Assembly (NCBI GenBank): GCA_022564195.1
Contig: JADFLW010000001.1
Span: 711 to 64,710, forward strand
Source: Patescibacteria group bacterium
GTDB lineage: Bacteria; Patescibacteriota; Microgenomatia; UBA1400; Chisholmbacteraceae
Direction: 5' to 3'
DNA: 64,000 nucleotides
Of this stretch, positions 15,808 through 64,000 are shown one piece after another. Each line of letters starts with the position of its first letter. Within the stretch, counting starts at the first letter, position 1. The notes under the pieces are model-generated. The model saw only the letters and a program-made list of their open reading frames with translations. It did no database searches and had not been told where the DNA came from. The position numbers and the translations under genes were made by a program.

Positions 15808-15900
15808 TTAATGGCCGGGAAGAAGCAGGCAAAGATACCATGATGCTATAATACATGATTGTCGATCTCTTAAAACGGATTTATCTAAGGAGGTGTTTGA

Positions 15901-16221: not shown

Positions 16222-16251
16222 TTGAACAATACTACATGTGTAGGGTAAAAT
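16222..16251 (+). promoter_or_regulatory. candidate sigma70 promoter for tRNA-Trp (TTGAAC -N18- TAAAAT)
   Basis: hexamers read in sequence 14 nt upstream of tRNA 5' end. Confidence 0.35.
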
Positions 16252-16264
16252 AGGGAGACAATCT

Positions 16265-16335
16265 AGGCCCGTGATGAAATGGTATCATGAGGGTCTCCAA
16301 AACCCTTCTTCCAGGTTCGAGTCCTGGCGGGCCTG
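16265..16335 (+). tRNA. tRNA-Trp (anticodon CCA)
   Basis: hand-folded: acceptor AGGCCCG/CGGGCCT, D-stem ATGA/TCAT, anticodon stem AGGGT/ACCCT loop CTCCAAA, T-arm CCAGGTTCGAGTCCTGG. Confidence 0.8.
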
Positions 16336-16352
16336 CAAAAAGATTGTAGTGG

Positions 16353-49715: not shown

Positions 49716-49915
49716 ACTCACCACTTCTCGGTCCCTCCAAATACTCCCCATAAATTTGTTGTAATGAGTACACTCTTTCTCCAAGGGCGGTTTCCATGGT
49801 CATTGGTTTTTTGCATGTTTCTCTCGCGACTCGGCTTCATCGGTTTTTCTGATGGTCTTTGATGCAGATATTGCTGGTTGCATAGATTTTGAAGGCTCTG
49901 TTAGCATGGATTCAA

Positions 49916-52126
49916 ATGGCAATGTGGCAGGTTCGAAAACGAAGCGGAGAGGTTGAGGATTTTCAAGCACCCAAGATCACCCAATCGATCGTCATGGCGC
50001 AATCCAATGTCGGGATCACCGATGCTGAGCAAGCAAAGCGGGTCGGCAGGCTGGTTTTTTCGGACCTTCAGAAGCGTTTAGCTCAAGATCGTGTGATCGG
50101 CACGGATCAGATCGGTGATGCGGTTGAGCGGATCCTCATCGATGAGGCGCTGTATGAGATCGCCCGTGCCTACATCATTGCCCGTGAGCGGCAGCGGCAG
50201 GAAACAAGAGCAGAGAAGCAGCTCGGGGTGGTGGATGATGTTGGTCTTCCTTACAACTCCATCGTGGTCATTCGCAACAAGTACCTCAAAAAAGATGAAC
50301 AGGGAAATCCCATTGAGACACCGAAGCAGATGTTTGGGCGAGTGGCGAAGACGCTGGCTCGGGCTGAGAAGAAGCGTGGTGCCTGGGAGGACCGGTTTTT
50401 TGATGTCATGGTTTCCCTGCGGTTTTTGCCGGCTGGGCGAACGCTTGCCAATGCGGGAACAACGAATAATCAGATGGCGAACTGCTTTGTTCTGCCGATG
50501 CCGGATAGTGTGGAAGGCATCTTTGAGGTGGTGAAGGCAAGCTCGATACTCAAGAAAAACGGTGGGGCAGTTGGCTTTAACTTCGGAAAGATCCGCCCCA
50601 AAGGGGATGTGGTTGCCGGAACGACCGGTGAGGCCTGTGGTCCGGTGGCGCTGATGAAGATCCTCAACGATGCCTCGGACATTCTTCTACAAGCGGGTGG
50701 TCGGAGAAGCGGCAACATGGTGCTGCTTCCGGTTTCCCATCCTGATGTACTTGAGTTTGTCACCTGTAAAGAGGATGAATCGCTTCTTCCCCACATCAAT
50801 TATTCCTTGGGGGTGACCAGCAAGTTCATGCAGGCGGTGGCGGATGATGAACCATGGGATTTAGTAAATCCCAGAAATGGAGAGGTGGTCAACACGGTTT
50901 CGGCAAGGAGCATTTTTGATCTGGCCAGTTCCTTGGCTTGGCGCAACGGTGATCCCGGGATGGTGTTTTTGGATCGGGTGAATCGCGATAATCCCACGCC
51001 GCAGGTTGGGGTTCTGGAGGCCGTCAATCTCTGCGGGGAGCAGCCGCTTCTTTCTTGGGAGGCGTGCAACCTGGGATCAATCAATTTGGCCGCGCATCTC
51101 TCAAGCAATGGCAAACGAACCATGGATTGGAAGAAACTTGAAGAATCGGTACGGCTCGGGATCCGGATGCTTGATAACGTGATTACCCAGTGTAGCTATC
51201 CGGTGAAGGAAGTGGAGCGGATGGTGAAGAGCAATCGAAAGATCGGATTGGGCGTCATGGGGTGGGCGGATGTGTTGGTCCGATTGGGAATAGCCTATGG
51301 CAGCGAAGAGGGGCTACGGTTGGCTCGCAAGACCATGAAGTTTATTCGAAAGATTGCCGAGGATGAGAGCGCGAGGTTGGGTCGGGAGAAGGGGAGTTTT
51401 CCAAACTTCGCTGGTTCGCTTTGGCAGAAGAGCGGATTCAAGCACTTTCGCAATGCGACGCTTTTGACCATCGCTCCGACTGGCTCGATCAGCATGGCGG
51501 CGGGAGTGAGCTACGGCATAGAGCCGCACTTTGCATTGGCGTTTTACAAAGAAGCGATGGGTGGGATTCAATTACCTGAAGTGAACTCGGATCTACTTGA
51601 GGTACTTCGTGATGTCGGGATTGACGACAATGGACTATTGGATGAGATTGCCCAGACCGGGACGATCCAACATTTGCCCCAGATTCCGGAGAAGATTCGC
51701 AAAGTATTTGTGACTGCCCACGATTTAGGCCCGAGTGATCATGTCTTAACACAAGCTGCGTTTCAACGCTACACGGACAACGCGGTTTCCAAGACGATTA
51801 ATCTTCCGCATGACGCGCGGGTTGAGGATATTGAGGAAGCCTTCATGCTTGCCTGGAAGACGGGGTGCAAGGGGATCACTGTGTATCGGGATGCGAGCCG
51901 CAAGGTACAGGTTTTGAATGTTGGGAAACAGGCGAGAAAGCGTCAAGCGTCTAGCGTCAAGCGTCGAGGGAGGAGAGAGGGAGCAGTTGATCAACCCCTA
52001 CAAGCTAAGAAGCTAAGAAGCTCTGTAGCCTCGAGAGATGAATGTCCGCAGTGCGGGGCGAAGATGCAGATGGCAGAAGGTTGTGCCACCTGCCCGTCAT
52101 GCGCATTTTCCGTTTGTTCGGTGTAG
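49916..52126 (+). CDS. nrdJ: adenosylcobalamin-dependent (class II) ribonucleotide reductase with N-terminal ATP-cone and C-terminal zinc ribbon
   Basis: ORF track (TTG 49889; first ATG 49916); ..VRKRSGEVEDF.. ATP-cone; RNR core; C-terminal CPQCG..CATCPSCAF. Confidence 0.85.
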   Translation: MAMWQVRKRSGEVEDFQAPKITQSIVMAQSNVGITDAEQAKRVGRLVFSDLQKRLAQDRVIGTDQIGDAVERILIDEALYEIARAYIIARERQRQETRAEKQLGVVDDVGLPYNSIVVIRNKYLKKDEQGNPIETPKQMFGRVAKTLARAEKKRGAWEDRFFDVMVSLRFLPAGRTLANAGTTNNQMANCFVLPMPDSVEGIFEVVKASSILKKNGGAVGFNFGKIRPKGDVVAGTTGEACGPVALMKILNDASDILLQAGGRRSGNMVLLPVSHPDVLEFVTCKEDESLLPHINYSLGVTSKFMQAVADDEPWDLVNPRNGEVVNTVSARSIFDLASSLAWRNGDPGMVFLDRVNRDNPTPQVGVLEAVNLCGEQPLLSWEACNLGSINLAAHLSSNGKRTMDWKKLEESVRLGIRMLDNVITQCSYPVKEVERMVKSNRKIGLGVMGWADVLVRLGIAYGSEEGLRLARKTMKFIRKIAEDESARLGREKGSFPNFAGSLWQKSGFKHFRNATLLTIAPTGSISMAAGVSYGIEPHFALAFYKEAMGGIQLPEVNSDLLEVLRDVGIDDNGLLDEIAQTGTIQHLPQIPEKIRKVFVTAHDLGPSDHVLTQAAFQRYTDNAVSKTINLPHDARVEDIEEAFMLAWKTGCKGITVYRDASRKVQVLNVGKQARKRQASSVKRRGRREGAVDQPLQAKKLRSSVASRDECPQCGAKMQMAEGCATCPSCAFSVCSV
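51938..51965. repeat. tandem heptamer (AAGCGTC/AAGCGTC/TAGCGTC/AAGCGTC) inside nrdJ coding region
   Basis: read directly; encodes ..RKRQASSVKRRG.. Confidence 0.6.
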
Positions 52127-52175: not shown

Positions 52176-52562
52176 ATGTTGGAGAATTTTGCGAAACCAC
52201 AGATTGTCGTTGACTACGCTTACCAGCTCCGGGATGGGAAGACCGGTCATCACCTAAAGTACAGTACGTACAGTCCTGACCTTTTTGTGCGTCGTACGCT
52301 CTTGAGTACAGAAAACGATGCCTACTTCGCGACCGCAATCCATGAAAGGGTGACTGTGGTCCTCTCCTATCATCAAGAGTCTGACTCATCTCGAGCATTC
52401 CATTTGCTTCTGTGGGGAGGGACTGAGCAAGCAAAGCAAGCGATTGTTGAGGGAATTGGGTCAACGCTGGAAGGTGTTCGTGAGCTGTTCGCTTGGAGTT
52501 CAGTGACTCCTGTAGAGGTGAAAGAGAGAGGCAAGTACGTTTGGGAAGTACAGTTGGAATGA
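52176..52562 (+). CDS. hypothetical protein
   Basis: ORF track. Confidence 0.45.
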   Translation: MLENFAKPQIVVDYAYQLRDGKTGHHLKYSTYSPDLFVRRTLLSTENDAYFATAIHERVTVVLSYHQESDSSRAFHLLLWGGTEQAKQAIVEGIGSTLEGVRELFAWSSVTPVEVKERGKYVWEVQLE

Positions 52563-52637: not shown

Positions 52638-52883
52638 TTAGTCTTCTAGAATTTCCCAGTAGGAATCGGGTTTTTTGAGTCCGAATGTGTTCCAGACCCA
52701 ACTGATGTCCTGCTGTGCTTCTGGGGTGGACTCAAATTCCAGTCCTCTTGCGTCAAAGAAAGTTGATTCTGACAATGTTTTCATAAACTCTTGGTCTTTT
52801 TCTGTCATGTTTGGATACGCGAGGATTCTGAAGATGCCTACGAGATTGCGGAGTCGCGTTCTGCTCTGGGGATTCAATAACAC
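52638..52883 (-). CDS. hypothetical small protein
   Basis: ORF track. Confidence 0.35.
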   Translation of the reverse strand: MLLNPQSRTRLRNLVGIFRILAYPNMTEKDQEFMKTLSESTFFDARGLEFESTPEAQQDISWVWNTFGLKKPDSYWEILED

Positions 52884-52949
52884 TCTCAGCGCCTGCTGCT
52901 CTCAAAAGGGGCTTGTTTTCCATGACTTCTTTGTGATAGCTTCTGAACG

Positions 52950-54521
52950 ATGAGTGTACGGGCACGCGGCTGGCCGATCTATTACAAAGATATTCTCCTT
53001 GTTAACGATCCTGATCATCACCTCGGGATCTGCTGTTTGTGGACCGAGCGGCAGGTGGTTGCCAAGCTCATTGGTGACGCCAAGTACAACGTGATTGGGA
53101 ACTTGTATAGCGCCCAGGGGATCAACGCGATGATGCGCAACATCTTTGCCAATCCCGCGATTCGGACAATCGTTCTGTGGGGGGCAGAGATGAGTCTTTC
53201 CGGGCATTCGCTGTTGATGCTCATGAAAGAGGGGCTCGATCGCGAGCGGCGGATCAAAAATGGTCGCGGGGAGATTGAGCGTGAGATTCCGAGACGGGCC
53301 ATTGAGCAGTTCCGGCGCGTGGTTGAGGTTGTTGATTTGCGTGGGAGAGATAAGGACGAGCTTATAAAGACGGTTAAGCGTCTCGCTTCGGAAAAGAAGA
53401 AGCCTTTTGCCAAGAAGCCTAAGACATTTCCCAAATCGCAGCCGCAGTTTAGTGTTCTTCCGAGTGAGAAAGTAGGATTTCGCGTTTCTTCTCCGAAGGT
53501 TGCCAAGACCTGGCTCAAGCTTCTTAACGAAATCTATAAATATGGTCTTCCTAAACACACGCGCTACAGCAAGGACAACGAGATTCGCGAGATTTTGAAT
53601 TTGACGGCTGTGGTGACCGATGAGGATCCTGAAGACATTTACTTTCCTGCGTACCTTCCATTTAGCGAGATAGAGATGAAAGCATACTACGCAGAGCTTC
53701 TGACAGCCAGACAAATTCCCGGTGTCGCATATAACTACGGTCGGCGGTTGCGGCTGGAACTTGGAGTGGACCAAATTAAGAAAATGAAGGAGCTGATTAA
53801 GAAACGGCCGGCATCCAAGAAGATGGCAGCGTTTACCGCCGATGTCAAAAAGGATTGGAGTAAGGTGCACAAGGGCGATACGCCCTGCCTGACACAAATT
53901 CTGGGAAGTATTTACGAGAACAGGTTCTATTTCACGGCCCATTTTAGAAGCCAAGACATGGTGCACGGATGGCCACGCAACGCCTTTGCCTTGCGAAAAC
54001 TTCAACAAGATATTGCTGGTGATACAGGATATTCTCTCGGACCGCTCACCATTATTACTCACAGTGCTCATATCTATGGTGATGACTTCCTGTTGGTTGA
54101 GAACCTGTTGATGGACCACTACGAGAAGGAGTTGGGATTCACGCCGGCAGTGCATTTTAAATTCGATCCGCGGGGAAATATCGTCATTGAAGTTGTGAGT
54201 CGCAATGATGCGTTGGTTTGGCCTGAGTTCGCTCATCGATATGACAAAGAGGCGGTGCCGTATGCGGTTAGCATGGGCTTGAAGCGTCTACCGAAGCGGG
54301 GAAGAAATGCCGGGAAACTCATACGGGCGACCATTTATGCGCCGGATGGCGGAGCGCCGCTTAAGGTTTTTGAAGGGAGGACTGCTCAGGAAGTGGCGTA
54401 TCAAATCGCTGATTGGGGATATATTTCAGAGTCAAGCCATTCAATGTATATTGGCTTGGAGTTACAGCGGGCGGAGGAAGCGATCATTCGTGGGGGTGGG
54501 TATCACCAAGATCCGGCATAA
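52950..54521 (+). CDS. thymidylate synthase (ThyA)-family enzyme (~330 aa) fused to a ~190 aa N-terminal domain of unknown function
   Basis: ORF track; catalytic signatures align with E. coli ThyA: ..GDTPCLTQ.. (Cys nucleophile), ..RSQD.. (R166/D169), ..GWPRNAFALRKL.. (N177), ..HSAHIY.. Confidence 0.7.
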   Translation: MSVRARGWPIYYKDILLVNDPDHHLGICCLWTERQVVAKLIGDAKYNVIGNLYSAQGINAMMRNIFANPAIRTIVLWGAEMSLSGHSLLMLMKEGLDRERRIKNGRGEIEREIPRRAIEQFRRVVEVVDLRGRDKDELIKTVKRLASEKKKPFAKKPKTFPKSQPQFSVLPSEKVGFRVSSPKVAKTWLKLLNEIYKYGLPKHTRYSKDNEIREILNLTAVVTDEDPEDIYFPAYLPFSEIEMKAYYAELLTARQIPGVAYNYGRRLRLELGVDQIKKMKELIKKRPASKKMAAFTADVKKDWSKVHKGDTPCLTQILGSIYENRFYFTAHFRSQDMVHGWPRNAFALRKLQQDIAGDTGYSLGPLTIITHSAHIYGDDFLLVENLLMDHYEKELGFTPAVHFKFDPRGNIVIEVVSRNDALVWPEFAHRYDKEAVPYAVSMGLKRLPKRGRNAGKLIRATIYAPDGGAPLKVFEGRTAQEVAYQIADWGYISESSHSMYIGLELQRAEEAIIRGGGYHQDPA

Positions 54522-54622
54522 TATAGCGTATAGCGGTTGGGGTTGAGGGAACTTCAACGCGTTTGTATTTTTTGGGGGTTTACAACGGTTCCGAATTTCT
54601 GATAGCTTAAACAATTGGTACG

Positions 54623-54961
54623 ATGGCTTCAATCGAACAGGAGATTCAACGAAGAATTGCTGAAGGGGAAACAGGCCTAGTTGGTTTTCAGTGGCCAGAT
54701 GGGTATGTGCGCGTTGGAGTGGTTGTTGAGTGTCCACATTCGGGTGATTCTGAGCACTTTGCGCTGGTTCCGGGAAGTGTGTTTGATGAGGAGGTTGAGT
54801 GCAATGAGGGGCATCGGTTTTTTGTGACGAGAGAGGATGAGGGTCCGGTTTTCCATACCGAAAGGCCGGAACATTTCTCGCCGCCAGTTGTCGTCGATGA
54901 GCGTCATGTAGAACTTGGTACGTATCGCAGTCCTCAACCTTCGAATCATGATGCAGGCTAG
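54623..54961 (+). CDS. hypothetical protein
   Basis: ORF track. Confidence 0.4.
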   Translation: MASIEQEIQRRIAEGETGLVGFQWPDGYVRVGVVVECPHSGDSEHFALVPGSVFDEEVECNEGHRFFVTREDEGPVFHTERPEHFSPPVVVDERHVELGTYRSPQPSNHDAG

Positions 54962-55022
54962 TTCTTGATCGAGGGGGAGAGGAGAAGGACATCGTGGACT
55001 TCCTGATTAAGGAGGTTTTTAT

Positions 55023-56315
55023 ATGGAAAAATTCGAAGGTCTACTGAATCCCATAGAGTTGCAGAGCGCTCATGCAAGCATTCTTGAGCGGATTATTCCT
55101 CCTGAGGGATTGCTTCTCCCTCAAGATCCAATTCTCAAACAGGGAACGACGGGTCTCAAGATTCATATCTTTGAATTCGCTTCAACAGATGATGTCGATA
55201 TTCCGGGTGCGATCGCTGCTGTGTACCCAGAATTAGCGGGTGTCTTTCCTAACGTACTGGTTCTTAAACATCGGGGGGATGAGCCGCATCGGTACTTTGA
55301 GAACATGGGGGAGATTGGGAATCAGACTGTTCTTAATGAAACACGTGTTGACCAGAGAGTCCTTACTAGTGGTTTGGTTCCGTCAGCGCTTGGGCTTGGT
55401 CGAATTGAGAAACACTCTAATGGCATGCGTTTGTTTCCCGACAGTGGAGATGGCTCAGATACGCGCGAGGTAGCGATGGTCATGCCCTATTACGACGAGA
55501 GCACTGATTTTGGCAAGACATTACATGCACGGAAAGATGGAGAGTTTCGAAGAGAAATAATGGATCAAGCAGTTGCGCTCGGCTTTGCGTTTGAGAGAGC
55601 GATGCCGAATCAGCATAGGGCAGAGTATTCGGGATTAGCAGGAATACAGCGGTTGATTAAAGAGACTTTTGATCGAGCCCAATCATGGTACGGAGAACAA
55701 ACCGGGTCATCGAGTATTTCCGGAGGGGTTGAGTTGGGAGAAGCAGAAGTAGCTGCTGAATCAGGAGAGCTTTTTCAAGACAGCATTGACAGGTTGTTCG
55801 CTGATCCTGAGTTTAAGAAATATGTTGATCGGGAGAGAAGGATCGGGGGTTTTGTTGACGTGCACGGTGATTTACGGCCTTATGACAATGCCAATGTTGT
55901 TACCACAACGCGTGGTCGGCCACTCGTGGTCTTTCGCGATCCGGTACGTCTCTATCTTAAGGATGAGAGAGAGTGGTCAAACTTTCATTTCACTCACCGT
56001 GATTTTCAGCTGGGGTTACTCATGGGTCGTTTCTATAGCGAGGGACACCATGACCTGATTAGTTATGGTATTGAGGCTTTCCAGAGGAGAGTTGGCGAGC
56101 GGAATCGATTGGTGGACGGGCGGATTAGTCAGTTGAGTAAGCCAGAGGCTCAGATGAAAGGACTCGGTATATGTTACGGAGTGTTTGTAGAGATTGTCGT
56201 TGCCAAAGGCAAGATGGTGCGCGGTGAAAATGATGGCCCTCCGATCGTTGATTATTGGCGTGCGGTTGGAGAACTTGCAGATCGTGACTTTCTGTCTTGG
56301 AAGGAGGGGTTATGA
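55023..56315 (+). CDS. putative phosphotransferase with protein-kinase-like/APH-like fold
   Basis: ORF track; strong SD AAGGAGG; ..VDVHGDLRPYDN.. resembles HxDxxxxN catalytic loop. Confidence 0.35.
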   Translation: MEKFEGLLNPIELQSAHASILERIIPPEGLLLPQDPILKQGTTGLKIHIFEFASTDDVDIPGAIAAVYPELAGVFPNVLVLKHRGDEPHRYFENMGEIGNQTVLNETRVDQRVLTSGLVPSALGLGRIEKHSNGMRLFPDSGDGSDTREVAMVMPYYDESTDFGKTLHARKDGEFRREIMDQAVALGFAFERAMPNQHRAEYSGLAGIQRLIKETFDRAQSWYGEQTGSSSISGGVELGEAEVAAESGELFQDSIDRLFADPEFKKYVDRERRIGGFVDVHGDLRPYDNANVVTTTRGRPLVVFRDPVRLYLKDEREWSNFHFTHRDFQLGLLMGRFYSEGHHDLISYGIEAFQRRVGERNRLVDGRISQLSKPEAQMKGLGICYGVFVEIVVAKGKMVRGENDGPPIVDYWRAVGELADRDFLSWKEGL

Positions 56316-57067
56316 TTCCGATCTTTATTGCCACAGGACATTCGGGAAGCGGGAAGTCGACTCTCCTGCGATTTGCAAAACAGGCGTTTCAGAACTACGG
56401 ATTGTTTTCGGAGACAGTGACTGACCGTGATCTTCTCTCCCAAGCGGTGGCTCAAGATATGGCAGAGGGCTACGAAGAGCTCGAGGTCGGAGAAGGGAAA
56501 CTTGCAAAGGTCAGCGCTCACGCGGTTTTGTACCGCGATCATCATGATCCGGGACTTCGGGTCTTTACGGTTCGGGATGGCCTGCTATTGAATCGAGTGC
56601 ACCAGAAGATGCGGGACTTAGTTTTCGATTATCGTGATGAGAGTGGATTGGTTGTGGAATGGACGACTGGGCCGAATGTTCATGAGTTCCCCGTTCTTCC
56701 GACTGGTGAGGAGGAATTATATCAGGATGGGAACAGCATCGTTGAGCTGTTTGCCGAGCGTAGGTTAGGAGATGGGAGGCAGGTGCTCATGGTAGCTGTG
56801 AATACCGATTTGGAGCAGCGGATCGAGCGGAACCTTCGTCGCCCAGACCCGATGGATCCTGATGATTTTTCCAAGATATTTCGCGACGGAGGGGAACTTC
56901 GACAGTTTGATGCTGCGCAATTTCCCAAGGGCGTGTTCTTTCATGAGTACGAGAACAACTACGACGATGAAGCACGGTTTTTCCAAGAGATGCGTGAGAT
57001 GTGCGGAAGAGAAGCCCAGAGACTCTTTGAAGGAGGGTGGGTGAACCGAGAACGGCAGAAGAGGTGA
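56312..57067 (+). CDS. P-loop NTPase, predicted nucleotide/nucleoside kinase
   Basis: Walker A ATGHSGSGKST; ATG 56312 with SD AAGGAGGGG, ATGA overlap with upstream stop. Confidence 0.6.
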   Translation: MIPIFIATGHSGSGKSTLLRFAKQAFQNYGLFSETVTDRDLLSQAVAQDMAEGYEELEVGEGKLAKVSAHAVLYRDHHDPGLRVFTVRDGLLLNRVHQKMRDLVFDYRDESGLVVEWTTGPNVHEFPVLPTGEEELYQDGNSIVELFAERRLGDGRQVLMVAVNTDLEQRIERNLRRPDPMDPDDFSKIFRDGGELRQFDAAQFPKGVFFHEYENNYDDEARFFQEMREMCGREAQRLFEGGWVNRERQKR

Positions 57068-57128
57068 TCTTTTGTTTTGAAAAACGGCTCTTGCTATCAT
57101 TTCAAAGGCTCTGTTATTCTGACTAGTG

Positions 57129-58043
57129 ATGAAGCGAGTGAAGGCGATTCTGGATTTTGACGGGACTTTGACCGATGAGACTCGGCAAGCCCAGGAACTC
57201 GCTTCGATTGCCAAGCGGATGCTTGCCGAAGAGATCCTTGAGGTACCCATAGAAGAGGTCGAGACACTTTACCGCGAGATTCGAGAGGAGATCCTACGCA
57301 GACCCCATCGATATTGTTGGGAAGTCAATGGTCTTCCAGCTACTTATGCCTGTGAAGGCGCGTATCTTCTTAATACATCTATTCTTCAGGAAGTAATTCG
57401 CTCAAGTCCCAGTTACGTACGGAAGATTCGCAAGCGCTTTCCGCAGAAATCTCTTGACTCGTTGACCCTATGCTCCAATCACCTTTTCCACACCGGGACT
57501 CTTAAGACTAGGACGCATTTTTTGGATGGGGTGCGGGAACTTCTGGTTTGGCTGATTGAGCATGAGGCGATTGACCCGTGTATTTTGTCGAACTCTGAAA
57601 CCCGCAAAATCAGCAAGAGTTTGTGTTTGCTGAAGATCGGAGAGCGCGGAAGTGACCACGGCTTTGACTATGAGATTGAGATTCTTGGAGATACACGGCA
57701 GTACCATATGGATGAGGAGTGGGGAGAGCATTTTGATCACGGCGAGTACGGCGCAATCCAGGTTGTTCCGGTGAATACGCATTTTTCCATCGATCTTCGT
57801 CGGCCGGTGTATCATGCGGCTCTGAAGAAGGTCGTGGCGGAAGGACATGATGAGGTTGTTGTGGTTGCGGATGGCTTATCGCTCGCTGGCGCCTTGCCGC
57901 TCATGATGGGGTTGCGGTTCATTCTGAAAAAGACCGATCACACTCCTTCTTGGAGTGAGGAGTTTGTCTCTTTGCATCCGAACGGATCGGTGGTTGAGGA
58001 AATTGGGCAAGTCAAGGAAGCGCTTATCTCCCTGGTTGAGTAG
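57129..58043 (+). CDS. HAD-superfamily hydrolase (predicted nucleotidase/phosphatase)
   Basis: motif I ILDFDGTLTD; first ATG after GTG 57126. Confidence 0.7.
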   Translation: MKRVKAILDFDGTLTDETRQAQELASIAKRMLAEEILEVPIEEVETLYREIREEILRRPHRYCWEVNGLPATYACEGAYLLNTSILQEVIRSSPSYVRKIRKRFPQKSLDSLTLCSNHLFHTGTLKTRTHFLDGVRELLVWLIEHEAIDPCILSNSETRKISKSLCLLKIGERGSDHGFDYEIEILGDTRQYHMDEEWGEHFDHGEYGAIQVVPVNTHFSIDLRRPVYHAALKKVVAEGHDEVVVVADGLSLAGALPLMMGLRFILKKTDHTPSWSEEFVSLHPNGSVVEEIGQVKEALISLVE

Positions 58044-58047
58044 TTTG

Positions 58048-58719
58048 ATGGATAGACCTTCTTGGATTTCTGAAATTCTGGCATTGGGGTGGGATTTGGA
58101 CGGGACGCTGTATCGATCGTTTCCTGGGGAGACTGAACTGACGGATATGATTCGCAAGAGGCAGCTGGCTGCGGTGGCGAGCAAGCAAAGATGGGATTTA
58201 CGACGCACTCAGCGTGAATATCGAAAACGGTATCTTGAGTTGGGGAGTAATACGAAGACGATGACGTCATTTGGGATAGATGGAGTTGATTTTTTTACCT
58301 CCATTTGGGATGAGATTGATCTAAAAAAATACATACAACGGGATGGGCGTATCACTGAGCTGTTTGAGCGTTTGCCCGGAAAACGGCATTTCCTGATCTC
58401 AAACAGCAATCGGATCGATCAGATTGAGAAAAAACTCCATCTCATAGGGCTGGATCCAAATGTGTTTGAACTGATTGTCTCGACGGTGGATTTAAAGGCG
58501 GTGAAGCCGGATCCGAAACCATTTCTGGTTGCTTTGGAGAAGCTTCAGTTGAAACCTGGGCAGGTGCTGTTTATCGGCGATCGGGTGACGACGGATGTCA
58601 TGGGGGCGAGGGGAGTCGGGATGCGAACCTGCATGGTTTGGGGCGAGAGTAAAGCGGCTGACATCTCGCTTGCGACGGTGTATGATGTTGGTCGGTTGTT
58701 CAGGGAGGGAAAGACATGA
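58048..58719 (+). CDS. HAD-superfamily hydrolase (second; haloacid-dehalogenase-like phosphatase)
   Basis: motif I LGWDLDGTLY, motif II ISNSN, motif IV GDRVTTD; start ATG 58048 overlaps upstream stop. Confidence 0.7.
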   Translation: MDRPSWISEILALGWDLDGTLYRSFPGETELTDMIRKRQLAAVASKQRWDLRRTQREYRKRYLELGSNTKTMTSFGIDGVDFFTSIWDEIDLKKYIQRDGRITELFERLPGKRHFLISNSNRIDQIEKKLHLIGLDPNVFELIVSTVDLKAVKPDPKPFLVALEKLQLKPGQVLFIGDRVTTDVMGARGVGMRTCMVWGESKAADISLATVYDVGRLFREGKT

Positions 58720-59801
58720 ACGTCTACTTCGGTGCTTCGGTAACGCTTTCTCGAGACTTACTGCCCGTTTATCAAAAGATTGTTTCAGAGATCAAACGGC
58801 AAGGGCATCGTGTCCTTTCCGAGCACGTCGTTGATCCGAAGCTGAAGACAACAGGCAAGCTCGATGCGCGGAGAATCTTTGCCGATGAGGTTGCCAAAAT
58901 TGAGAAGGCAGACGTTATGGTCGCTGAGGTGACCGAGCCTTCTTGGGGTACCGCTTTTTTGGTTGAGGAAGCGCTCGAGCAAGGGAAGCCTGTACTGGCC
59001 CTTTACTTTAAAGATGCTGAGACGCCACTTCCGGTGATGATTCAGGGTCATCCCGAGCTTTATGTTTCCCACTATACTGCTGATAACATCAAGACGGTGC
59101 TTGCCAAGCACTTTGAGCATTTTTCTCAAGCGAATGGTCGGCGCGGCAAGCTTGTAGTGATTGATGGGGCAGATGGATCGGGCAAATCGACACAGACGAA
59201 GCTTTTGCTTTCGTATTATAAAAAGCACGGAATCGCTCACACCTACATTTCATTTCCACGGTACTACACCTCGTTCCATGGTAAACATGTCGGAAGATTC
59301 TTGGCGGGGGAGTTTGGGGGTAACACTGACGTCAGTCCCTACCTCTCATCGTTGGCGTTTGCGCTGGATCGGTTGACAGCCCGGGATGAGATCGTTGAAT
59401 GGCTCAGAGAGGGGAAGATCGTGGTGGCGGATCGATACGTTTCGGCTAGTCTTGCCCATCAAGGGTCGAAGCTGCCTCCGCGCAAGCGGAAAGCATTTCT
59501 CGACTGGCTCTATCGTATGGAGTACAAGGAACACAAGCTGCCAAAAGAGGATGTGGTGATTTATCTTTATGTTCCTGTGGAGGTTGCTCAGAAACTCCTC
59601 CGAAAGGAGGCGCGTCGGAGGGATGTTGCGGATGTTGATGTTGAGCACCAGCGGCGTACGGTCGCTCTCTATAGACAGCTGGTCAAGAGGTACAGATACT
59701 GGGAGATGATTCGTTGCCTGAATTCGAAGGGAGAATTGTACCCGAAGGAAACGATCCACGAGAAGATCCTCAACGCGTTGCGGCGTCGGGAGATCATCTG
59801 A
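58716..59801 (+). CDS. tmk: fusion protein: N-terminal nucleoside 2-deoxyribosyltransferase/Rcl-like domain + C-terminal thymidylate kinase
   Basis: N-domain ..VYFGASVT....GTAFLVEEALEQGKPVLAL..; C-domain KLVVIDGADGSGKSTQ P-loop and ..DRYVSASLAHQ.. Tmk motifs. Confidence 0.75.
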   Translation: MNVYFGASVTLSRDLLPVYQKIVSEIKRQGHRVLSEHVVDPKLKTTGKLDARRIFADEVAKIEKADVMVAEVTEPSWGTAFLVEEALEQGKPVLALYFKDAETPLPVMIQGHPELYVSHYTADNIKTVLAKHFEHFSQANGRRGKLVVIDGADGSGKSTQTKLLLSYYKKHGIAHTYISFPRYYTSFHGKHVGRFLAGEFGGNTDVSPYLSSLAFALDRLTARDEIVEWLREGKIVVADRYVSASLAHQGSKLPPRKRKAFLDWLYRMEYKEHKLPKEDVVIYLYVPVEVAQKLLRKEARRRDVADVDVEHQRRTVALYRQLVKRYRYWEMIRCLNSKGELYPKETIHEKILNALRRREII

Positions 59802-59844: not shown

Positions 59845-60324
59845 TTGAATACCAGAGCGCTTTCACAAAGCTCTGGTATTTTTGCGGCAAATATGAGAAA
59901 AGAGGCGCCTACTTGCCAACAGCAAGGGACATTTCGATCTACGTTTGACGAGAACGGACGGGGTGTACGAAGCGACGAGGTCTCTATCTTCGTTGAGGGA
60001 GCGGTTGAGCGGGGTGGAGTCGTGGATCAGTACGCCTTGGCCGATGAGATCGGGTGCAGTTTGAGTATTGTGCGGGATCATTTACATGCCCATCCGCTTG
60101 TTCAGGTGAAGAATGGAAGAGGGAAAAGACTCACGTTCTGGTCGATTGCACCGCCTCCTCAACCGACGCAAGAAGGCTTGCTCGCTTTCGAAGAGGAGAA
60201 AGCGCATTTTGATGATCGGTTGGGAAGGGACGCTCGAGCTGATTTCTACGGGCTCGTTCGGGAGAGGACCCAGATGGCCAGGCAAAAGAAAATAGGACGC
60301 AGGAGAGTGATACGGCGGTTTTGA
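59845..60324 (+). CDS. hypothetical protein
   Basis: ORF track. Confidence 0.4.
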   Translation: MNTRALSQSSGIFAANMRKEAPTCQQQGTFRSTFDENGRGVRSDEVSIFVEGAVERGGVVDQYALADEIGCSLSIVRDHLHAHPLVQVKNGRGKRLTFWSIAPPPQPTQEGLLAFEEEKAHFDDRLGRDARADFYGLVRERTQMARQKKIGRRRVIRRF

Positions 60325-60358: not shown

Positions 60359-60736
60359 TTGCGGCATATGCGTAAAGAATCGCTGAATCCTCCAGTTGGG
60401 GCGGAAGATGCTCCATCTGGTTTCTCAATAGGCTTACCTGGTTTTTTCGAGCGAGGAGGTGGCGCTGCTAGGGGGAGTGGTGGACCTCCTGTAGATGCTG
60501 CCTTAGAATTTCCGGAAGAGCAGGAAGGCAAGACTGGCAAGATACCGCGGTCATTTCGTCGCTTGCCGGTGCCGATTGAGATGGTGAGAGCTCTCTGGGC
60601 CGGCAGCGTTGATCCCGATGTTCATTACAAGAATTGGAGCTATGAAGCTCTTCCTTTGGCTGGATCTGGGACTGGGGAAGGTAAAGAAGAAGTCGTGAGT
60701 TCTGATTCAGCGTCTTCGGAGCAAACTGAGGGTTGA
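60359..60736 (+). CDS. hypothetical protein
   Basis: ORF track. Confidence 0.4.
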   Translation: MRHMRKESLNPPVGAEDAPSGFSIGLPGFFERGGGAARGSGGPPVDAALEFPEEQEGKTGKIPRSFRRLPVPIEMVRALWAGSVDPDVHYKNWSYEALPLAGSGTGEGKEEVVSSDSASSEQTEG

Positions 60737-60774
60737 CATCTTAAGTTTCACTCTTTATATTTTTCACTATACTT

Positions 60775-60799
60775 AGGGCTTAAAAAAAGCCCTTTTTTT
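60775..60799 (+). terminator. rho-independent terminator (AGGGC-loop-GCCCT + T7)
   Basis: read directly. Confidence 0.55.
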
Positions 60800-60830
60800 G
60801 TTTCAAAAATGGGTTCCAGAGGAAAGTGCG

Positions 60831-61592
60831 ATGGTAAACAACGTTGTTGAGAAGAGAGAGATGAGCCATCCTGATCGCAAGTCCATCCTTCCGCGAGGCA
60901 GATTGTACGAGCCGGCACTTCAGGCTGAAACCGCTGCTGCGCTTCGAGCGCTTCTTCGAGAAGATATGGAGGCGCGAGCCTGGGTGAAGGATGATGAGGA
61001 CTACCCTTATCATCCCGGCGAGCCGTTTATCGTCTATGAGCCGATGAACAAGAAGCCTGAGATGGGAGTGGCGGTGCTTCTCGGGAAGCTGGCACGGTTC
61101 GAGCTGGGGCAGGATCATGAACATGGACTTGTGCTGATCGGTGTGCCGCGGTCAGCGACGTGGATGGCGCAGGTGATCATGGAAGCAGGAGTCTTTCCTA
61201 GTGCCCAAGTCGCACACGTCACCAAGGAACCAGCTGACATTCCCGTGGGCGCTTCTGTGCATGAATCCCTGATCCTCTCCTACGCTCACAAAAGAAAGCC
61301 CGATAACTCTCGGGCTCCGGAGGTCGTGTACTTTGTCCATCCTGAACGCATAGCGGGGAAGGATGTCCTTCTTGTTGATGACGTGCTCGCTGAGGGAGAG
61401 ACGGTGATCGGCATGGCGCGGGTTATGCGGGACTTGGGAGCGAATAGGGTCGATGCGGCGGTTGTTCTGTCGAAAGTGCTCCAAGGGGGAAGTAAGAACA
61501 TCCAGGAGTCTCAACTGGTCGAGCAGTTGGTTGAGGGGGTTCGGGTGAGTGCCGTGCGTGGCCCTGGATTTAGGAAGCTTGTTTTTGAATAA
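60831..61592 (+). CDS. phosphoribosyltransferase (type I PRTase fold) domain protein
   Basis: PRPP-loop-like ..VLLVDDVLAEGETV..; track start 60798 is TTG, first ATG 60831. Confidence 0.5.
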   Translation: MVNNVVEKREMSHPDRKSILPRGRLYEPALQAETAAALRALLREDMEARAWVKDDEDYPYHPGEPFIVYEPMNKKPEMGVAVLLGKLARFELGQDHEHGLVLIGVPRSATWMAQVIMEAGVFPSAQVAHVTKEPADIPVGASVHESLILSYAHKRKPDNSRAPEVVYFVHPERIAGKDVLLVDDVLAEGETVIGMARVMRDLGANRVDAAVVLSKVLQGGSKNIQESQLVEQLVEGVRVSAVRGPGFRKLVFE

Positions 61593-61620: not shown

Positions 61621-62334
61621 ATGCGTACTGTTATCATGACTACTGGTGTTCCTGGCGTCGGGAAGTCGACGTTTATGGCTCTGTTGGAAGCGAAGTTACG
61701 CGGAGATGGTATTCTCGCTGCATTGATCAATGACTACCGGTTTTATTCAGAGTGGAAAGATCTTGAAGGTAATCAAATCTTTTGGGAGCCCTTAGGAGAA
61801 ACATTCAATCTGAAACCAGAAGCCTACGAGCACGTCTCCGTCTATGCGGCTGGTCGACTGGCTGATGAAGTTGCTGACTTTTTTGACGAGGGAAAGCGGG
61901 TGGTTGTCGTTGAAGCTGCTCGGGGTGCTTTTGGAAGGGACAACTATACTGAAGGGTTGTTTGTTCCCATAGCGCAGGGGCTTGATGGCCGGGAGGATCC
62001 GATTTGCTTTGCGAACTTCGAAGTTGTCGCCCCCAGCAAAGAAGTGATAGTGGCGCGGGCGAGGGACCGCATTGGCGAGGATCCGAATGCTGCACCGCCT
62101 GAAACCTGTTTGAAATACTTCGATGGTGACGAGCTTTTTTGCTCGTCGGTTCTTGAGCTTCGCCGATCTCCTCTTGGAGTTACTCCAATCATGAATGAGA
62201 CGGTTGACAACGGTGGAACCATTGAGGGAGTGAAGGCTGTGGTGGAAGGCTTGTATCCCACTATGCTTGAGCGGCTCGGAATTGGAGGCAGTGTAGAGGG
62301 CGGCCGTCCTCTGGACGGGAAAGAGCGGTTGTAG
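61621..62334 (+). CDS. P-loop NTPase/kinase-like protein
   Basis: ORF track; Walker A TTGVPGVGKST. Confidence 0.5.
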   Translation: MRTVIMTTGVPGVGKSTFMALLEAKLRGDGILAALINDYRFYSEWKDLEGNQIFWEPLGETFNLKPEAYEHVSVYAAGRLADEVADFFDEGKRVVVVEAARGAFGRDNYTEGLFVPIAQGLDGREDPICFANFEVVAPSKEVIVARARDRIGEDPNAAPPETCLKYFDGDELFCSSVLELRRSPLGVTPIMNETVDNGGTIEGVKAVVEGLYPTMLERLGIGGSVEGGRPLDGKERL

Positions 62335-62361: not shown

Positions 62362-62700
62362 ATGGTATATTACGATGACATGACGACTCCAGAAACCCCT
62401 CAGTGGGTTCAAGATTTACCGAAAGAGTTTCAGTCGTTGATGGAAGAGCATCAAGTTTTCAGTGATAGAAGAGTGCGGTCCGTGTTTGAAGATCCGCTGT
62501 TTGACGAAGATGAGCAAGCGAGAGTGGTCATGTCTCAAGCATTAGAAAGAATCTCGGATCGTTGGGGTGCTGACCGCCGTCTCTTGGTTGTCGACGTCTA
62601 TAGAGCAGTTGAGAAGGCGGCTGAGGACGTGAGCTATATGGGAAAATTACGGCCACTGAAGTATTTAGCTCGAGCCGTGAGAGATTCGCTGTTTTACTAG
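62362..62700 (+). CDS. hypothetical protein
   Basis: ORF track. Confidence 0.4.
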   Translation: MVYYDDMTTPETPQWVQDLPKEFQSLMEEHQVFSDRRVRSVFEDPLFDEDEQARVVMSQALERISDRWGADRRLLVVDVYRAVEKAAEDVSYMGKLRPLKYLARAVRDSLFY

Positions 62701-62786
62701 TGGCGTCTTTTTTTTGCGAGAGAGACTTTGTTGCTGCCCTCCTTCTTATCGGGTGTTGTCGGGCACTGTGATATCATTGAGCGCGT

Positions 62787-64000
62787 ATGGATATGGTGTT
62801 CCGCTTGATTGCCAAAGAGCGTAAACGGCTGCGAGAACAATTGCAGTTGATCCCGTCTGAGAATTACGCATCTTCGGCTGTGATGCGGGCGGTGGGGTCG
62901 GTTCTCATGAACAAATACTCGGAAGGCCAGGTGGGGAAGCGCTATTATCAGGGGAACGTGAACATTGACGATGTTGAGAGGCTTTGTAAAGAGCGGGCGC
63001 TCAAGCTTTTTGGTTTGGATGGGGACAAGTGGGGGGTCAATGTGCAGGGATTGTCCGGATCGCCGGCGAATTTGGCGGTGTACGTGGCGCTTTTGGAGCC
63101 GGGGGAGCGGATCATGAGTATGTTTTTGCCTGAGGGTGGGCACTTGTCGCATGGCTGGCACATGCCGCATAAGAAGGTGAGTTTTGTCTCCAAGATTTGG
63201 GATGTGGAGTTTTATCATGTGGACCGCAAGACGCGGGTCTTTGACTATGATCAGATTGAACGCCAGGCGTTGAGATTCAAGCCGAAGCTCTTAATTTCCG
63301 GAGGGACGGCATATCCTCGTGAGATTGATCACAAACGGATGGGCCAAATTACACGCAAGGTGGGGGCCTATTACCTTGCGGATATTGCCCACGAAGCGGG
63401 TTTGGTGGCGGCTGGGGTGAACTCGTCTCCCTTTCCTCACGCCGATGTCGTGATGATGACCACGCACAAAACCCTGCGTGGGCCACGGGGGGCGATTATT
63501 ATTTCTCGAAAAAAGCTTGCTCAAAAGATCGATTCTGCCGTGTTTCCCGGGCTTCAGGGTGGGCCACATAACCACACCATTGCCGGGATTGCGGTGTGTT
63601 TGGCTGAAGCGCAGCGAGCGTCGTTTCGCCACTATGCAAAGCAAGTGGTCGTCAATGCTCAGGTTCTGGCATCTGAGTTGGCAGCAGCCGGTTTTGACCT
63701 CGTGAGTGGAGGGACGGATAAGCACCTTCTGCTTGTTGATCTTCGCACGATCGGCATCTCCGGGTGGGTGGCGGCTTGGGCGCTTGAGTACGCCAACATC
63801 ATTGTGAATCGGAATACCGTTCCGCAAGAGACCGCCTCGCCGTATTATCCATCAGGATTGCGGATGGGGACGCCGGCAATCACGACGCGCGGGATGAAAG
63901 AGCGAGAGATGCGGCGGATAGCAGGCTGGATCGTTGCGGTCATCGAGCATTCCCGGAAATGGGTGCTTCCGGAAGGGAAGCAGCAACGACGTCTTTTCGC
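62787..64000 (+). CDS. glyA: serine hydroxymethyltransferase, 3' partial (runs off window)
   Basis: hand translation MDMVFRLIAKERKRLREQLQLIPSENYAS..; ..TTHKTLRGPRGA.. PLP-lysine motif; not in ORF track because no stop in window. Confidence 0.88.
   Translation, partial: MDMVFRLIAKERKRLREQLQLIPSENYASSAVMRAVGSVLMNKYSEGQVGKRYYQGNVNIDDVERLCKERALKLFGLDGDKWGVNVQGLSGSPANLAVYVALLEPGERIMSMFLPEGGHLSHGWHMPHKKVSFVSKIWDVEFYHVDRKTRVFDYDQIERQALRFKPKLLISGGTAYPREIDHKRMGQITRKVGAYYLADIAHEAGLVAAGVNSSPFPHADVVMMTTHKTLRGPRGAIIISRKKLAQKIDSAVFPGLQGGPHNHTIAGIAVCLAEAQRASFRHYAKQVVVNAQVLASELAAAGFDLVSGGTDKHLLLVDLRTIGISGWVAAWALEYANIIVNRNTVPQETASPYYPSGLRMGTPAITTRGMKEREMRRIAGWIVAVIEHSRKWVLPEGKQQRRLF

Follow-up and report, generated by a model that had tools for sequence, protein, structure and literature searches.

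What does a thymidylate-synthase-like enzyme make when its gene lies among kinases and phosphatases of no described family? The question is raised by a 64-kb stretch of DNA from a Patescibacteria group bacterium (contig JADFLW010000001.1), called here the window, in which a ThyA-like protein of 523 amino acids (aa), the ThyA fusion (52950..54521, forward strand), is followed by a series of tightly packed genes. A first-pass annotation had read these genes as at least a pyrimidine deoxynucleotide and thymidylate (dTMP) module, and alternatively as a set of the kind that phages use to make non-canonical or hypermodified pyrimidines. In our analysis the locus is rather probably a chromosomal deoxynucleotide-supply operon of a Candidatus Chisholmbacteria-like bacterium (Microgenomates, candidate phyla radiation, CPR), comprised of a core pathway and a variable slot. 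All seven closely packed open reading frames (ORFs) of that annotation are present on the forward strand exactly where it had placed them, and so are the flanking genes that it had named, namely nrdJ, a phosphoribosyltransferase (PRTase)-like gene, a second P-loop gene and glyA; the products of nrdJ and glyA pass the cut-offs of TIGR02504 and NF000586, respectively. The seven-gene operon stands, but the co-directional run is longer, extending without interruption on the forward strand from 49.9 to 64 kb, from nrdJ through glyA.

The ThyA fusion and its neighborhood in related genomes

The annotation had described the enzyme as a ThyA-like domain preceded by a novel N-terminal domain. Both domains are there, but a third, C-terminal one had been overlooked, and the N-terminal domain is not novel, as it is MtrA-like by sequence (47 bits against a cut-off of 25) and by structure (Foldseek TM-score 0.73). 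Pfam places the MtrA-like domain (PF04208, 47.1 bits, cut-off 25) at residues 5-154 (52962-53411), the thymidylate synthase (TS) domain (PF00303, 38.6 bits, cut-off 24.3) at residues 270-388, and DUF4346 (PF14251, 47.5 bits, cut-off 29.6) at residues 406-521 (54165-54512); the nucleotide span of the TS domain is 53487-54113. The highest-scoring TS model is the methanogen-type TIGR03283, which matches residues 180-381 over positions 4-199 of its 201 (E 4e-32). The score of 111.5 bits (114.3 for the isolated domain) is below the cut-off of 174.55, and it is about 80 bits ahead of the classical TS models, which give 20-30 bits.

About 500 homologues have the identical three-domain architecture, and the mean column identity in 18 diverse ones is 67%. 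An identical (100%) protein has been recorded from a Patescibacteria group bacterium metagenome-assembled genome (MAG), and the closest species representatives, at 78-80% identity, are Candidatus Chisholmbacteria. With one genome taken per species, 79 loci carry the three-domain protein at 50-80% identity; they come from Chisholm-, Woese-, Pace-, Beckwith-, Cerri-, Gottesman- and Roizmanbacteria, all of them Microgenomates. Loci of relatives are labelled L001, L004 and so on, L008 and L013 being the same locus. A literature search, which also covered TSs of the CPR, found no paper on DUF4346 (PF14251) or on an MtrA-TS-DUF4346 fusion. Many MAGs titled "uncultured Pseudomonadales" or "uncultured Gammaproteobacteria" also carry this CPR-specific gene together with CPR-type synteny (third-party annotation loci including L016, L020, L023, L025-L028, L031, L035-L037 and L044-L049), and these organism labels are probably wrong.

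To characterize the neighborhood, we compared the ORFs of the 79 species loci by phmmer; the counts are approximate. Upstream of the ThyA fusion gene we found dcd in ∼45 loci and nrdJ in ∼20. Downstream, an orthologue of the HAD-IA hydrolase of the window is present in ∼40 loci, a deoxynucleoside kinase (dNK) in ∼25, and a fusion of an NDT/Rcl-like domain with dTMP kinase (NDT/Rcl::Tmk, elsewhere replaced by plain Tmk) in ∼25; glyA, folD and pyrH are present as well. Outside the operon, relatives have mreB/C-PBP2-dprA-topA on the upstream side and rpsB-tsf-frr on the downstream side. L039 shows the order dNK-glyA-ThyA fusion-folD. L015, also from Chisholmbacteria, repeats the window order nrdJ-ThyA fusion-h112-kinase-P-loop-HAD-HAD-NDT::Tmk-ORF159. 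The recurrence of this gene order in L015 means that the arrangement is not due to chance. By its gene content, the core is a class-wide housekeeping arrangement predicted to serve dUMP supply, one-carbon supply, and the formation and phosphorylation of dTMP. The pyrimidine deoxynucleotide and dTMP module proposed at first thus holds, as dozens of Microgenomates species have the ThyA fusion, HAD-IA, NDT::Tmk, glyA and nrdJ in one neighborhood. Membership in housekeeping families with identical operons in relatives extends to this core, but not to four further proteins of the window that fall outside all described families, namely the kinase-fold protein, P-loop256, HAD305 and h112.

Homology and class-wide synteny together show the predicted core pathway. 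In it, NrdJ would reduce ribonucleotides, and the TS domain would convert dUMP, with a one-carbon unit from methylene-tetrahydrofolate made by GlyA and FolD, most probably into dTMP. The dTMP would then be phosphorylated by the Tmk moiety of NDT/Rcl::Tmk, while the HAD-IA nucleotidase and the Rcl-like domain would trim or sanitise the pool of deoxynucleoside monophosphates (dNMPs). The four proteins without a described family, which form the slot of the window, would hold the place of the dNK and thymidine kinase (TK) of sister genomes.

The product of the thymidylate synthase domain

What the TS domain makes, and what the MtrA-like and DUF4346 domains contribute, we can only infer. We aligned the TS domain with proven TSs (E. 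coli ThyA, phi3T ThyP3 and Aeh1 td) and with the SP10 dUMP hydroxymethylase, its RSL1 homologue, and 5-hydroxy-dCMP synthases of the RB69-gp48 and RL38JI types. The E. coli reference sequence used has the expected length, 264, and every landmark residue in place. The equivalents of E. coli C146, R166, S167, D169, N177, H207 and Y209 are C313 (53886-53888), R333, S334, D336, N344, H374 and Y376, in line with the first-pass assignment of the Cys, R166/D169 and N177 counterparts. The catalytic and dUMP-binding residues are invariant in 18 diverse homologues and in ∼84 fusion ORFs, in which the stretches "DTPCL" and "RSQDMVHGWPRN" are also essentially invariant.

In enzymes of this fold, N177 distinguishes uracil from cytosine, D169N is the hallmark of flavin hydroxylases, and the residue at L143, where a bulky hydrophobic side chain keeps water out, correlates with whether the product is methylated or hydroxymethylated (PMC13326640). 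Proven TSs have L143, D169, N177, L172, F176 and W80. At these positions the SP10/RSL1 hydroxymethylases have D, D, N, Y/W, T/A and M, and the window family has D310 (53877-53879), D336, N344, H339, R343 and L/M, with K290-K291 in place of R126/R127. The 5-hydroxy-dCMP synthases have E at L143, N at D169 and D at N177. A dCMP hydroxymethylase of the T4 gp42 type would have Asp where the window enzyme has Asn344, and a flavin-dependent 5-hydroxy-dCMP synthase (RB69 gp48 or HY126 AfhB) would have both D169N and N177D where it has Asp336 and Asn344; LG08 and phiR1-RT have N and D at these two positions. Asp310 is invariant in the ∼84 fusion ORFs, so the hydrophobic residue expected of a methylating TS is absent, and by the L143 rule alone the ThyA fusion looks like a dUMP hydroxymethylase.

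Among the sequence and fold matches of the TS domain, PDB entries 9iqc and 9iqu rank just behind B. subtilis ThyA. Although their molecule name is "Thymidylate synthase", they represent the flavin-dependent dCMP hydroxylase of phage HY126 (AfhB), with a short ThyA fold.

The weight of Asp310 was assessed by scoring point variants of the TS domain on TIGR03283 and on the classical model NF002495. The latter served as a positive control, as its score rises when hydrophobic residues are restored: from 29.6 bits for the wild type to 34.0 with D310L (+4.4 bits), 32.3 with H339L and 33.2 with R343F, with 29.8 for D310E, 30.1 for D310N and 30.6 for D310A. TIGR03283 favors E or D over L at the L143 column (wild type 114.3, D310E 115.9, D310N 114.1, D310A 113.3 and D310L 112.3 bits) and has no preference for hydrophobic residues at L172 and F176 (113.9 bits with H339L, 113.0 with R343F). 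Asp310 is therefore a trait of the clade and not diagnostic of hydroxymethylation, and we rejected it as proof of hydroxymethylase activity. An acidic residue and a polar pocket appear to be common to the NCBI-curated methanogen TS clade, within which the L143 rule may not be valid. We agree with the first-pass annotation that sequence alone does not separate methylation from hydroxymethylation, since Asp310 is of the hydroxymethylase type, yet TIGR03283 favors an acidic residue too.

With the methanogen TSs of TIGR03283, the window enzyme shares a full-length match of the short, ∼200-residue TS domain, the catalytic Cys, the RSxD...N and HxY motifs, and the residue preferences of the model at L143, L172 and F176. 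It differs from them in that the TS domain is set between the MtrA-like domain and DUF4346 in one 523-aa chain, in the Lys-Lys pair where both TIGR03283 and classical TSs favor Arg-Arg, and in its occurrence in CPR bacteria with folate-type glyA and folD. Compared to classical ThyA (E. coli, B. subtilis, phage td and ThyP3), the C-terminal half aligns (E. coli 108-213), including equivalents of C146, R166, S167, D169, G173, P175, N177, H207 and Y209. The differences are the replacements L143 to D, L172 to H, F176 to R, W80 to L/M, H147 to L and R126R127 to KK, the low scores on the classical models, and a TS domain without a free C-terminus.

If the domain were nevertheless a dUMP hydroxymethylase, the operon would make 5-hydroxymethyl-dUMP (5-hmdUMP) and 5-hmdUTP with dedicated kinases and phosphatases, and the DNA would carry 5-hydroxymethyluracil or a derivative. 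We regard this as very unlikely. In its favor are the invariance of Asp310 in the ∼84 fusion ORFs, the correlation of L143 with product type (PMC13326640), and the D143/D169/N177 set, which SP10 and RSL1 share and the TSs of E. coli, phi3T and Aeh1 do not. Moreover, a hydroxymethylase would regenerate tetrahydrofolate, which would fit the lack of a folA gene nearby. Human DNPH1 acts on hmdUMP, and a Rcl/DNPH1-like domain is fused to Tmk here. Against these points stand the preference of TIGR03283 for E or D over L described above and the two accessory domains, which such an enzyme would not need. In addition, the ThyA fusion is found class-wide beside TK, dNK and Tmk, and its setting therefore fits a role in dTMP supply.

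The comparison with phages points in the same direction. Thymidine hypermodification relies on a dUMP hydroxymethyltransferase, a DNA kinase for 5-hmdU (5-HMUDK) and a glycosylase-like pyrophosphorylase, often with pyridoxal-phosphate (PLP) or radical-SAM enzymes (PMC5889632). With the dUMP hydroxymethylase pathways of SP10, PhiW-14 and SPO1 (PMC5889632), the window shares the ThyA fold, Asp at L143, Asp169 and Asn177, and the clustering of the gene with kinases and HAD phosphatases. The similarity is limited to 25-27% identity in the TS domain; 5-HMUDK, the aGPT-PPlase and the radical-SAM and PLP enzymes are lacking, and the setting is chromosomal, class-wide and housekeeping. In the window and ∼90 related loci, we found no homologues of SP10 gp186 and gp185 (5-hmdU DNA kinase and aGPT-PPlase; best E 0.088) and no counterpart of the SP10 radical-SAM enzyme. 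Nor is there a glycosyltransferase, aminoacyl-transferase or PLP partner; the DNA glycosyl- or aminoacyl-transferase gene that the first-pass annotation had considered as a possible neighbor is not present. Searched by tblastn, 50,697 phage records contained no match to the kinase-fold protein or to P-loop256. Phage matches to the ThyA fusion cover only the TS domain, at 24-33% identity, and no phage has the three-domain architecture. Among PHROGs, the operon has TS, Tmk and HAD matches only; the P-loop proteins do not match beyond Walker A and the kinase-fold protein does not match at all, and PADLOC defence models find nothing meaningful in the window proteins. We rejected a phage or defence origin on these searches together with the SP10 comparison. 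Phage-style hypermodification, the alternative in the first-pass reading, is thus not supported, given the lack of phage kinase homologues and SP10-type partners and a class-wide gene beside TK, dNK and Tmk.

Even a dTMP-forming enzyme could work by a new mechanism. In that case, the TS domain would form the exocyclic-methylene intermediate, and a cofactor bound by the MtrA-like/DUF4346 module (a corrinoid, a flavin or another pterin) would supply the reducing equivalents in place of the folate C6 hydride; no dihydrofolate would be formed, so no dihydrofolate reductase (DHFR) would be needed. We consider this unlikely, although several features are consistent with it. Both accessory domains are kept at 50-80% identity throughout the class, and Y518, Q520, D521, P522 and A523 are invariant. 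In the folate pocket, D, H, R and L/M stand in place of the hydrophobic L143, L172, F176 and W80; a switch to flavin is on record for ThyA-fold enzymes (PDB 9iqc/9iqu; PMC13326640); and the neighboring NrdJ indicates that the organism uses a corrinoid.

The MtrA-like domain bears on this mechanism most directly. MtrA is the corrinoid subunit of the methanogen methyl-tetrahydromethanopterin:coenzyme M methyltransferase, and its cobalamin site is formed by His84, Glu54 and a GAIPF[YF]xEN segment (PMC4915002). In a Foldseek search with the AlphaFold model, the N-terminal domain matched the MtrA crystal structures 5l8x and 5laa with E 3e-7 and TM-score 0.73. The two share a Rossmann-like fold, residue numbering in register up to ∼78, and the same most conserved loops: those of the window domain (G50-N59, W77-H86 and R106-E112 in 18 homologues) fall on the three elements with which MtrA contacts cobalamin (PMC4915002). 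Judging from this conservation, the domain probably keeps a ligand site. However, the cobalamin signature itself does not appear to be kept. In the HMMER alignment to 5LAA, MtrA His84 falls in a two-residue gap, Glu54 is opposite Ser54/Ala55, and the segment reads RGEIEREIP, so that only the near-invariant His86, 2-4 residues from the position of His84, remains. Unlike MtrA, the window domain also has no membrane anchor and is fused to a TS domain.

Other observations bear on the new mechanism from the opposite side. According to the TIGR03283 model, stand-alone methanogen-type TSs have the same polar pocket, and the synteny with glyA and folD fits ordinary folate chemistry equally well. Neither a FolA homologue (with E. 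coli FolA as query) nor a ThyX motif was found in the window or up to 10 kb from the gene in ∼90 loci, which is compatible with a DHFR-free enzyme but is weak, local evidence. The AlphaFold model of the ThyA fusion has a mean pLDDT of 63, with good terminal domains and a poor TS core (<50) that does not allow the domains to be placed; for this model and that of the kinase-fold protein (both pLDDT ∼63), we used only fold-level matches. Protozoan bifunctional DHFR-TS likewise joins a TS covalently to a domain of a pterin-cofactor-related family. This is an architectural analogy only, as the window enzyme has no DHFR homology and a different domain order.

The C-terminus of the ThyA fusion ends in Y-x-Q-D-P-A (residues 518-523, 54500-54521), a tail that 18 diverse homologues keep unchanged up to its final residue. 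Because classical ThyA closes its active site with the C-terminal carboxylate, the QDPA tail may have a catalytic or gating role.

On balance, methylation is more likely than hydroxymethylation. Ordinary dTMP synthesis has, in our estimate, about an even chance of being the activity of the TS domain. A non-canonical cofactor route to dTMP has a small but appreciable chance, 5-hmdUMP as the product a slight one, and what remains goes to some other activity.

The variable slot and the other enzymes of the run

Between the ThyA fusion gene and HAD-IA lies a slot with a fixed position, the content of which differs even among close relatives. In L001 and L014 (ThyA fusion 78% identical to that of the window), it holds dNK and TK. 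In L004 (80%), it holds a divergent TK-like protein, a divergent dNK-like protein (both assigned from motifs) and an AAA_33-type P-loop kinase (P-loop194), none of which is similar to the slot proteins of the window. In the window and L015 (78%), the slot is comprised of h112 (54623..54961), a 430-aa kinase-fold protein (55023..56315), P-loop256 (56312..57067) and HAD305 (57129..58043), all on the forward strand. In L013 and L009 (79-80%), there are a member of the 430-aa family, one or two distant paralogues of it, and HAD305. Homologues of dNK, TK and dcd are absent from the 64-kb window (dNK and TK by phmmer with queries from L001, L004 and L006).

The 430-aa protein belongs to a rare family, with four matches among 5.8 billion clusters and 18 members among 1.84 billion representatives in a profile search. 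It has no sequence match in Pfam, NCBIfam or PDB, either as a single sequence or as a 17-sequence profile, or in PHROGs or PADLOC, and a profile scan of the contigs of species-representative genomes with the family alignment found no relative. In 17 members, K82, E106, G282-D283-x-R285, N289 and D306-P-x-R-L are invariant, which reads as the Lys/Glu/catalytic-loop/Mg-Asp pattern of protein-kinase-like enzymes. The top Foldseek matches are an aminopropanol kinase (6ef6), choline kinases, NahK and APH(7''), with APH(2'') also among the matches; the probabilities are 0.95-1.0 and the TM-scores only 0.33-0.38, for a model with pLDDT 63 and a catalytic loop below 50. Because the invariant kinase motifs and fold matches come without a match to any sequence family, we conclude that this is a new family of APH/choline-kinase-fold small-molecule kinases, and the kinase fold proposed at first is upheld. 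With APH, choline kinase, NahK and MtnK the family shares the beta3 Lys, the alphaC Glu, the HGDxRxxDN catalytic loop and the DxxR "DFG-like" Asp. It differs in that one additional residue separates the catalytic Asp from the Asn, and in that the gene is always paired with h112 and sits in a deoxynucleoside triphosphate (dNTP) operon.

Genes of this family adjoin nucleotide genes in every locus where they were found. In L013 and L009 the gene lies downstream of the ThyA fusion together with HAD305. The most distant locus, L006, has nrdJ, the kinase, a P-loop256 homologue, an AAA_33 kinase::HAD-IA fusion, an HD::Tmk fusion, Tmk, phosphoribosyl pyrophosphate (PRPP) synthetase, dNK and guaA. The small protein h112, with a Zn motif (CPH...C..H), is always encoded directly upstream of the kinase-fold gene; its homologues in L009, L015 and L007 are 38-42% identical, and it has no match in Pfam, NCBIfam or PHROGs. 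No other genes of the operon evolve as fast as these two: when the window is compared with L015, the kinase-fold proteins (L015:13322-14572) are 38% and the h112 proteins (L015:12938-13291) 42% identical, compared to 60-82% for nrdJ, the ThyA fusion, P-loop256, HAD305, HAD-IA and NDT::Tmk. In L009 (8671-9942 and 10034-11365) and L008 (9281-10519), the kinase-fold gene is followed by genes for proteins of ∼420-440 aa with a kinase-like "GNGDTKPxN...IDP" loop and a marginal match to the family profile (E 3e-4 to 7), which have the look of strongly diverged tandem paralogues.

P-loop256, which starts with ATG and overlaps the kinase-fold gene by 4 nt (ATGA), is P-loop kinase-like. Its Pfam matches are sub-threshold and at the level of Walker A (AAA_18/33, CPT, Zeta and KTI12), for which reason its assignment to a described family was dropped. 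Homologues adjoin the kinase-fold gene in L015 (65% identical) and L006 (26%). In Gottesmanbacteria-like loci without a kinase-fold gene, the family forms tandem arrays of 2-3 diverged paralogues right after Tmk (L073:15673-17963, L062:10296-12103 and L045:16556-17287), with the motifs GxxGSGKS, SDRxxLE, DGxxLNxVH, E(Y/W)ATGP, RNxxRPD and YFxDGG. The conserved SDRxxLE motif after strand 2 is reminiscent of the Asp/Arg pair in P-loop kinases that phosphorylate hydroxyl groups, T4 Pnk for instance.

HAD305, which has a large cap, is similar to phosphatases of the HAD superfamily. Its motif I, D9-x-D11-G-T13 (DFDGT), is invariant, and its PF00702 score of 23.4 bits is below the cut-off of 26.4, while 16 of 18 relatives match this family. 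There are 581 homologues, including those of Anaerolineae at ∼43% identity, and the proteins of L013 and L015 are 64-65% identical. A profile search found no relative in PDB, and the gene context outside the CPR, in Anaerolineae and other loci, is uninformative.

Because of their position and neighbors, from which their substrates are guessed, we infer that the slot genes encode non-orthologous phosphotransfer enzymes for salvage of (deoxy)nucleosides or nucleotides. It is quite unlikely that the slot, together with HAD-IA and the Rcl-like domain, instead forms a sanitation or resistance module that would inactivate or clear toxic or non-canonical nucleosides and nucleotides acquired from hosts, from phage DNA or from producers of antibiotics. 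Kinases with the APH fold are typically resistance enzymes, and the matches to APH(7'') and APH(2''), the fast evolution of the kinase-fold gene and h112 (38% and 42%, compared to 60-82%), the rare and lineage-restricted kinase-fold family, and the presence of the non-canonical pyrimidine nucleotidase YjjG among the nearest subfamilies of HAD-IA would all fit such a module. However, no resistance or defence model was matched, the HAD-IA subfamily matches are all far below their cut-offs, and sister genomes fill the slot with genuine salvage kinases, dNK and TK.

The aminopropanol kinase at the top of the Foldseek matches could also hint at salvage of a corrinoid or pterin cofactor for the B12-dependent NrdJ and the MtrA-like TS. 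The adenosylcobalamin dependence of NrdJ agrees with this, and the set of a kinase, a P-loop protein, a phosphatase and a PRTase-fold protein loosely echoes nucleotide-loop assembly. Yet we find such a role highly improbable. Similarity to CobU, CobT, CobS or CobC is lacking, as is a match to any model of a cofactor pathway; the TM-scores of 0.33-0.38 come from a poor model; the L006 kinase lies among Tmk, PRPP synthetase, dNK and guaA; and most loci with nrdJ and the ThyA fusion have none of these slot genes.

Several points weigh against reading the locus as a salvage-supplemented dTMP operon. The pocket, with D at L143, H at L172, R at F176 and KK at R126/R127, has the pattern of dUMP hydroxymethylases and not that of proven methylating enzymes. 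The TS domain, at 111 bits, is below the curated cut-off of TIGR03283 (174.55), its N-terminal half is not alignable to classical ThyA, and folA is absent from the window and from within 10 kb of the gene in the ∼90 loci. The slot proteins match no characterised family. L006 has both the kinase-fold gene and dNK, so the slot genes do not strictly replace dNK. Both AlphaFold models (pLDDT 63) are mediocre.

HAD-IA (58048..58719, forward strand) is separated from HAD305 by a gap of 4 nt, and its start is backed by the alignment with the L004 orthologue. The scores for PF00702 (70.9 bits) and PF13419 (61.7 bits) exceed the cut-offs. HAD-IA is a capped type-IA hydrolase. It is similar to pyrimidine 5'-nucleotidase and YjjG, although the closest NCBIfam subfamilies (CTE7, pyrimidine 5'-nucleotidase and YjjG) all score below their cut-offs. 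L006 joins such partners in two gene fusions: in one, an AAA_33-type P-loop kinase is linked to the HAD-IA orthologue (3504-4760), and in the other, an HD domain precludes the NDT/Rcl domain by taking its place next to a Tmk-like domain (4757-5854). L004 and L016 encode the P-loop kinase and HAD-IA in adjacent genes. The kinase::HAD-IA fusion gives the layout of T4 polynucleotide kinase-phosphatase, a P-loop 5'-kinase joined to a HAD phosphatase. It differs in that HAD-IA is of the capped small-molecule type and not a capless PNK phosphatase, and in that no PNK family is matched; P-loop256 of the window belongs to another family than the fused kinase of L006.

The NDT/Rcl::Tmk gene (58716..59801, forward strand) overlaps HAD-IA by 4 nt (ATGA) and encodes an NDT/Rcl (DNPH1)-like domain (58722-59021; PF05014, 35.3 bits, cut-off 28.8) and dTMP kinase (59160-59696; PF02223, 73.4 bits, cut-off 27). 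The Tmk moiety scores below the cut-offs of the NCBIfam equivalogs (NF005923, 126.9 against 193; TIGR00041, 63.6 against 83.25). With DNPH1/Rcl and nucleoside 2-deoxyribosyltransferases, the first domain shares the YFxxS...AEVTxPSxG motifs. In the window subgroup it reads PSWGTAFLVEEA, with Leu aligned to the presumed catalytic Glu of the G-x-G/A-x-E motif, and with Glu at +2; the Gottesmanbacteria subgroup, which reads PSSGVGGELVYA, keeps the Glu (GVGGEL). The Leu and the fusion to dTMP kinase distinguish the window subgroup from DNPH1/Rcl.

Upstream, nrdJ (49889..52126, forward strand) encodes a class II ribonucleotide reductase that depends on adenosylcobalamin and has an ATP-cone at its N-terminus (Pfam ATP-cone, lgN and lgC domains). 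It scores 621.2 bits on TIGR02504 (NrdJ_Z; cut-off 399.95) and is 78-82% identical to the orthologues of L004, L013 and L015. Two small ORFs on the same strand, of 128 aa (52176-52562) and 92 aa (52675-52953), separate it from the ThyA fusion gene; they have no match in Pfam or NCBIfam and no homologue among the related loci, in which other small ORFs occupy this interval. Long ORFs on the reverse strand (52902-54236, 444 aa; 54462-54992, 176 aa) overlap the ThyA fusion gene and h112 and were treated as non-coding shadows.

Downstream of NDT/Rcl::Tmk, all on the forward strand, lie two ORFs of 159 aa (59845-60324) and 125 aa (60359-60736) with no match in Pfam, NCBIfam or PHROGs. The former has a 41% identical counterpart at the same position in L015; the latter, in which Gly, Glu and Ser abound, may be a spurious ORF. 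They are followed by a PRTase-fold protein (60798-61592; PF00156, 37.9 bits, cut-off 26.3), the second P-loop protein (61621-62334), with matches at the level of Walker A only, a 112-aa ORF (62362-62700), and glyA (62787..64000), which runs off the end of the window. The product of glyA, serine hydroxymethyltransferase, scores 495.7 bits on NF000586 (cut-off 335) and is 76% identical to that of L004, where glyA is followed by folD-rpsB-tsf-frr. The best promoter and terminator candidates are located after the 125-aa ORF (60733-60793, with a promoter-like site at 60733-60761 and a terminator-like hairpin at 60775-60793) and before glyA (62687-62705), and such sites are no more common in the window than in shuffled sequence. 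Four tRNA genes (Thr-TGT, Tyr-GTA, Thr-GGT and Trp-CCA) at 11793-16336 are unrelated to the operon.

Implications for the Microgenomates

The synthesis of dTMP ranks among the essential reactions that are understood best, and only two types of thymidylate synthase are known, ThyA and ThyX. A whole class of the CPR appears to rely on a three-domain ThyA-like protein, the accessory domains of which come from corrinoid or pterin families and the active site of which lacks the residues thought to enforce methylation. Should the enzyme prove to be an ordinary TS, the locus amounts to a housekeeping operon that is well conserved and includes a few orphan enzymes. It is doubtful, though worth keeping in view, that the enzyme is unconventional, being either a third kind of TS, whose MtrA-like/DUF4346 module would deliver reductant or a one-carbon unit into a polar ThyA site of the hydroxymethylase type and which would dispense with dihydrofolate and DHFR, or a true dUMP hydroxymethylase, with the adjoining kinase-fold and P-loop kinases of Chisholmbacteria acting on the pyrimidine nucleotides so formed. 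Were it so, this would explain folate recycling in reduced genomes, and could bring to light a novel way of making dTMP or a cellular genome with 5-hmdU; in the case of a hydroxymethylase, a whole class of uncultured bacteria would have DNA derived from 5-hydroxymethyluracil. The slot, in turn, would represent a non-orthologous replacement of deoxynucleoside kinases by families not described in databases, which bears on how obligate symbionts scavenge DNA precursors.

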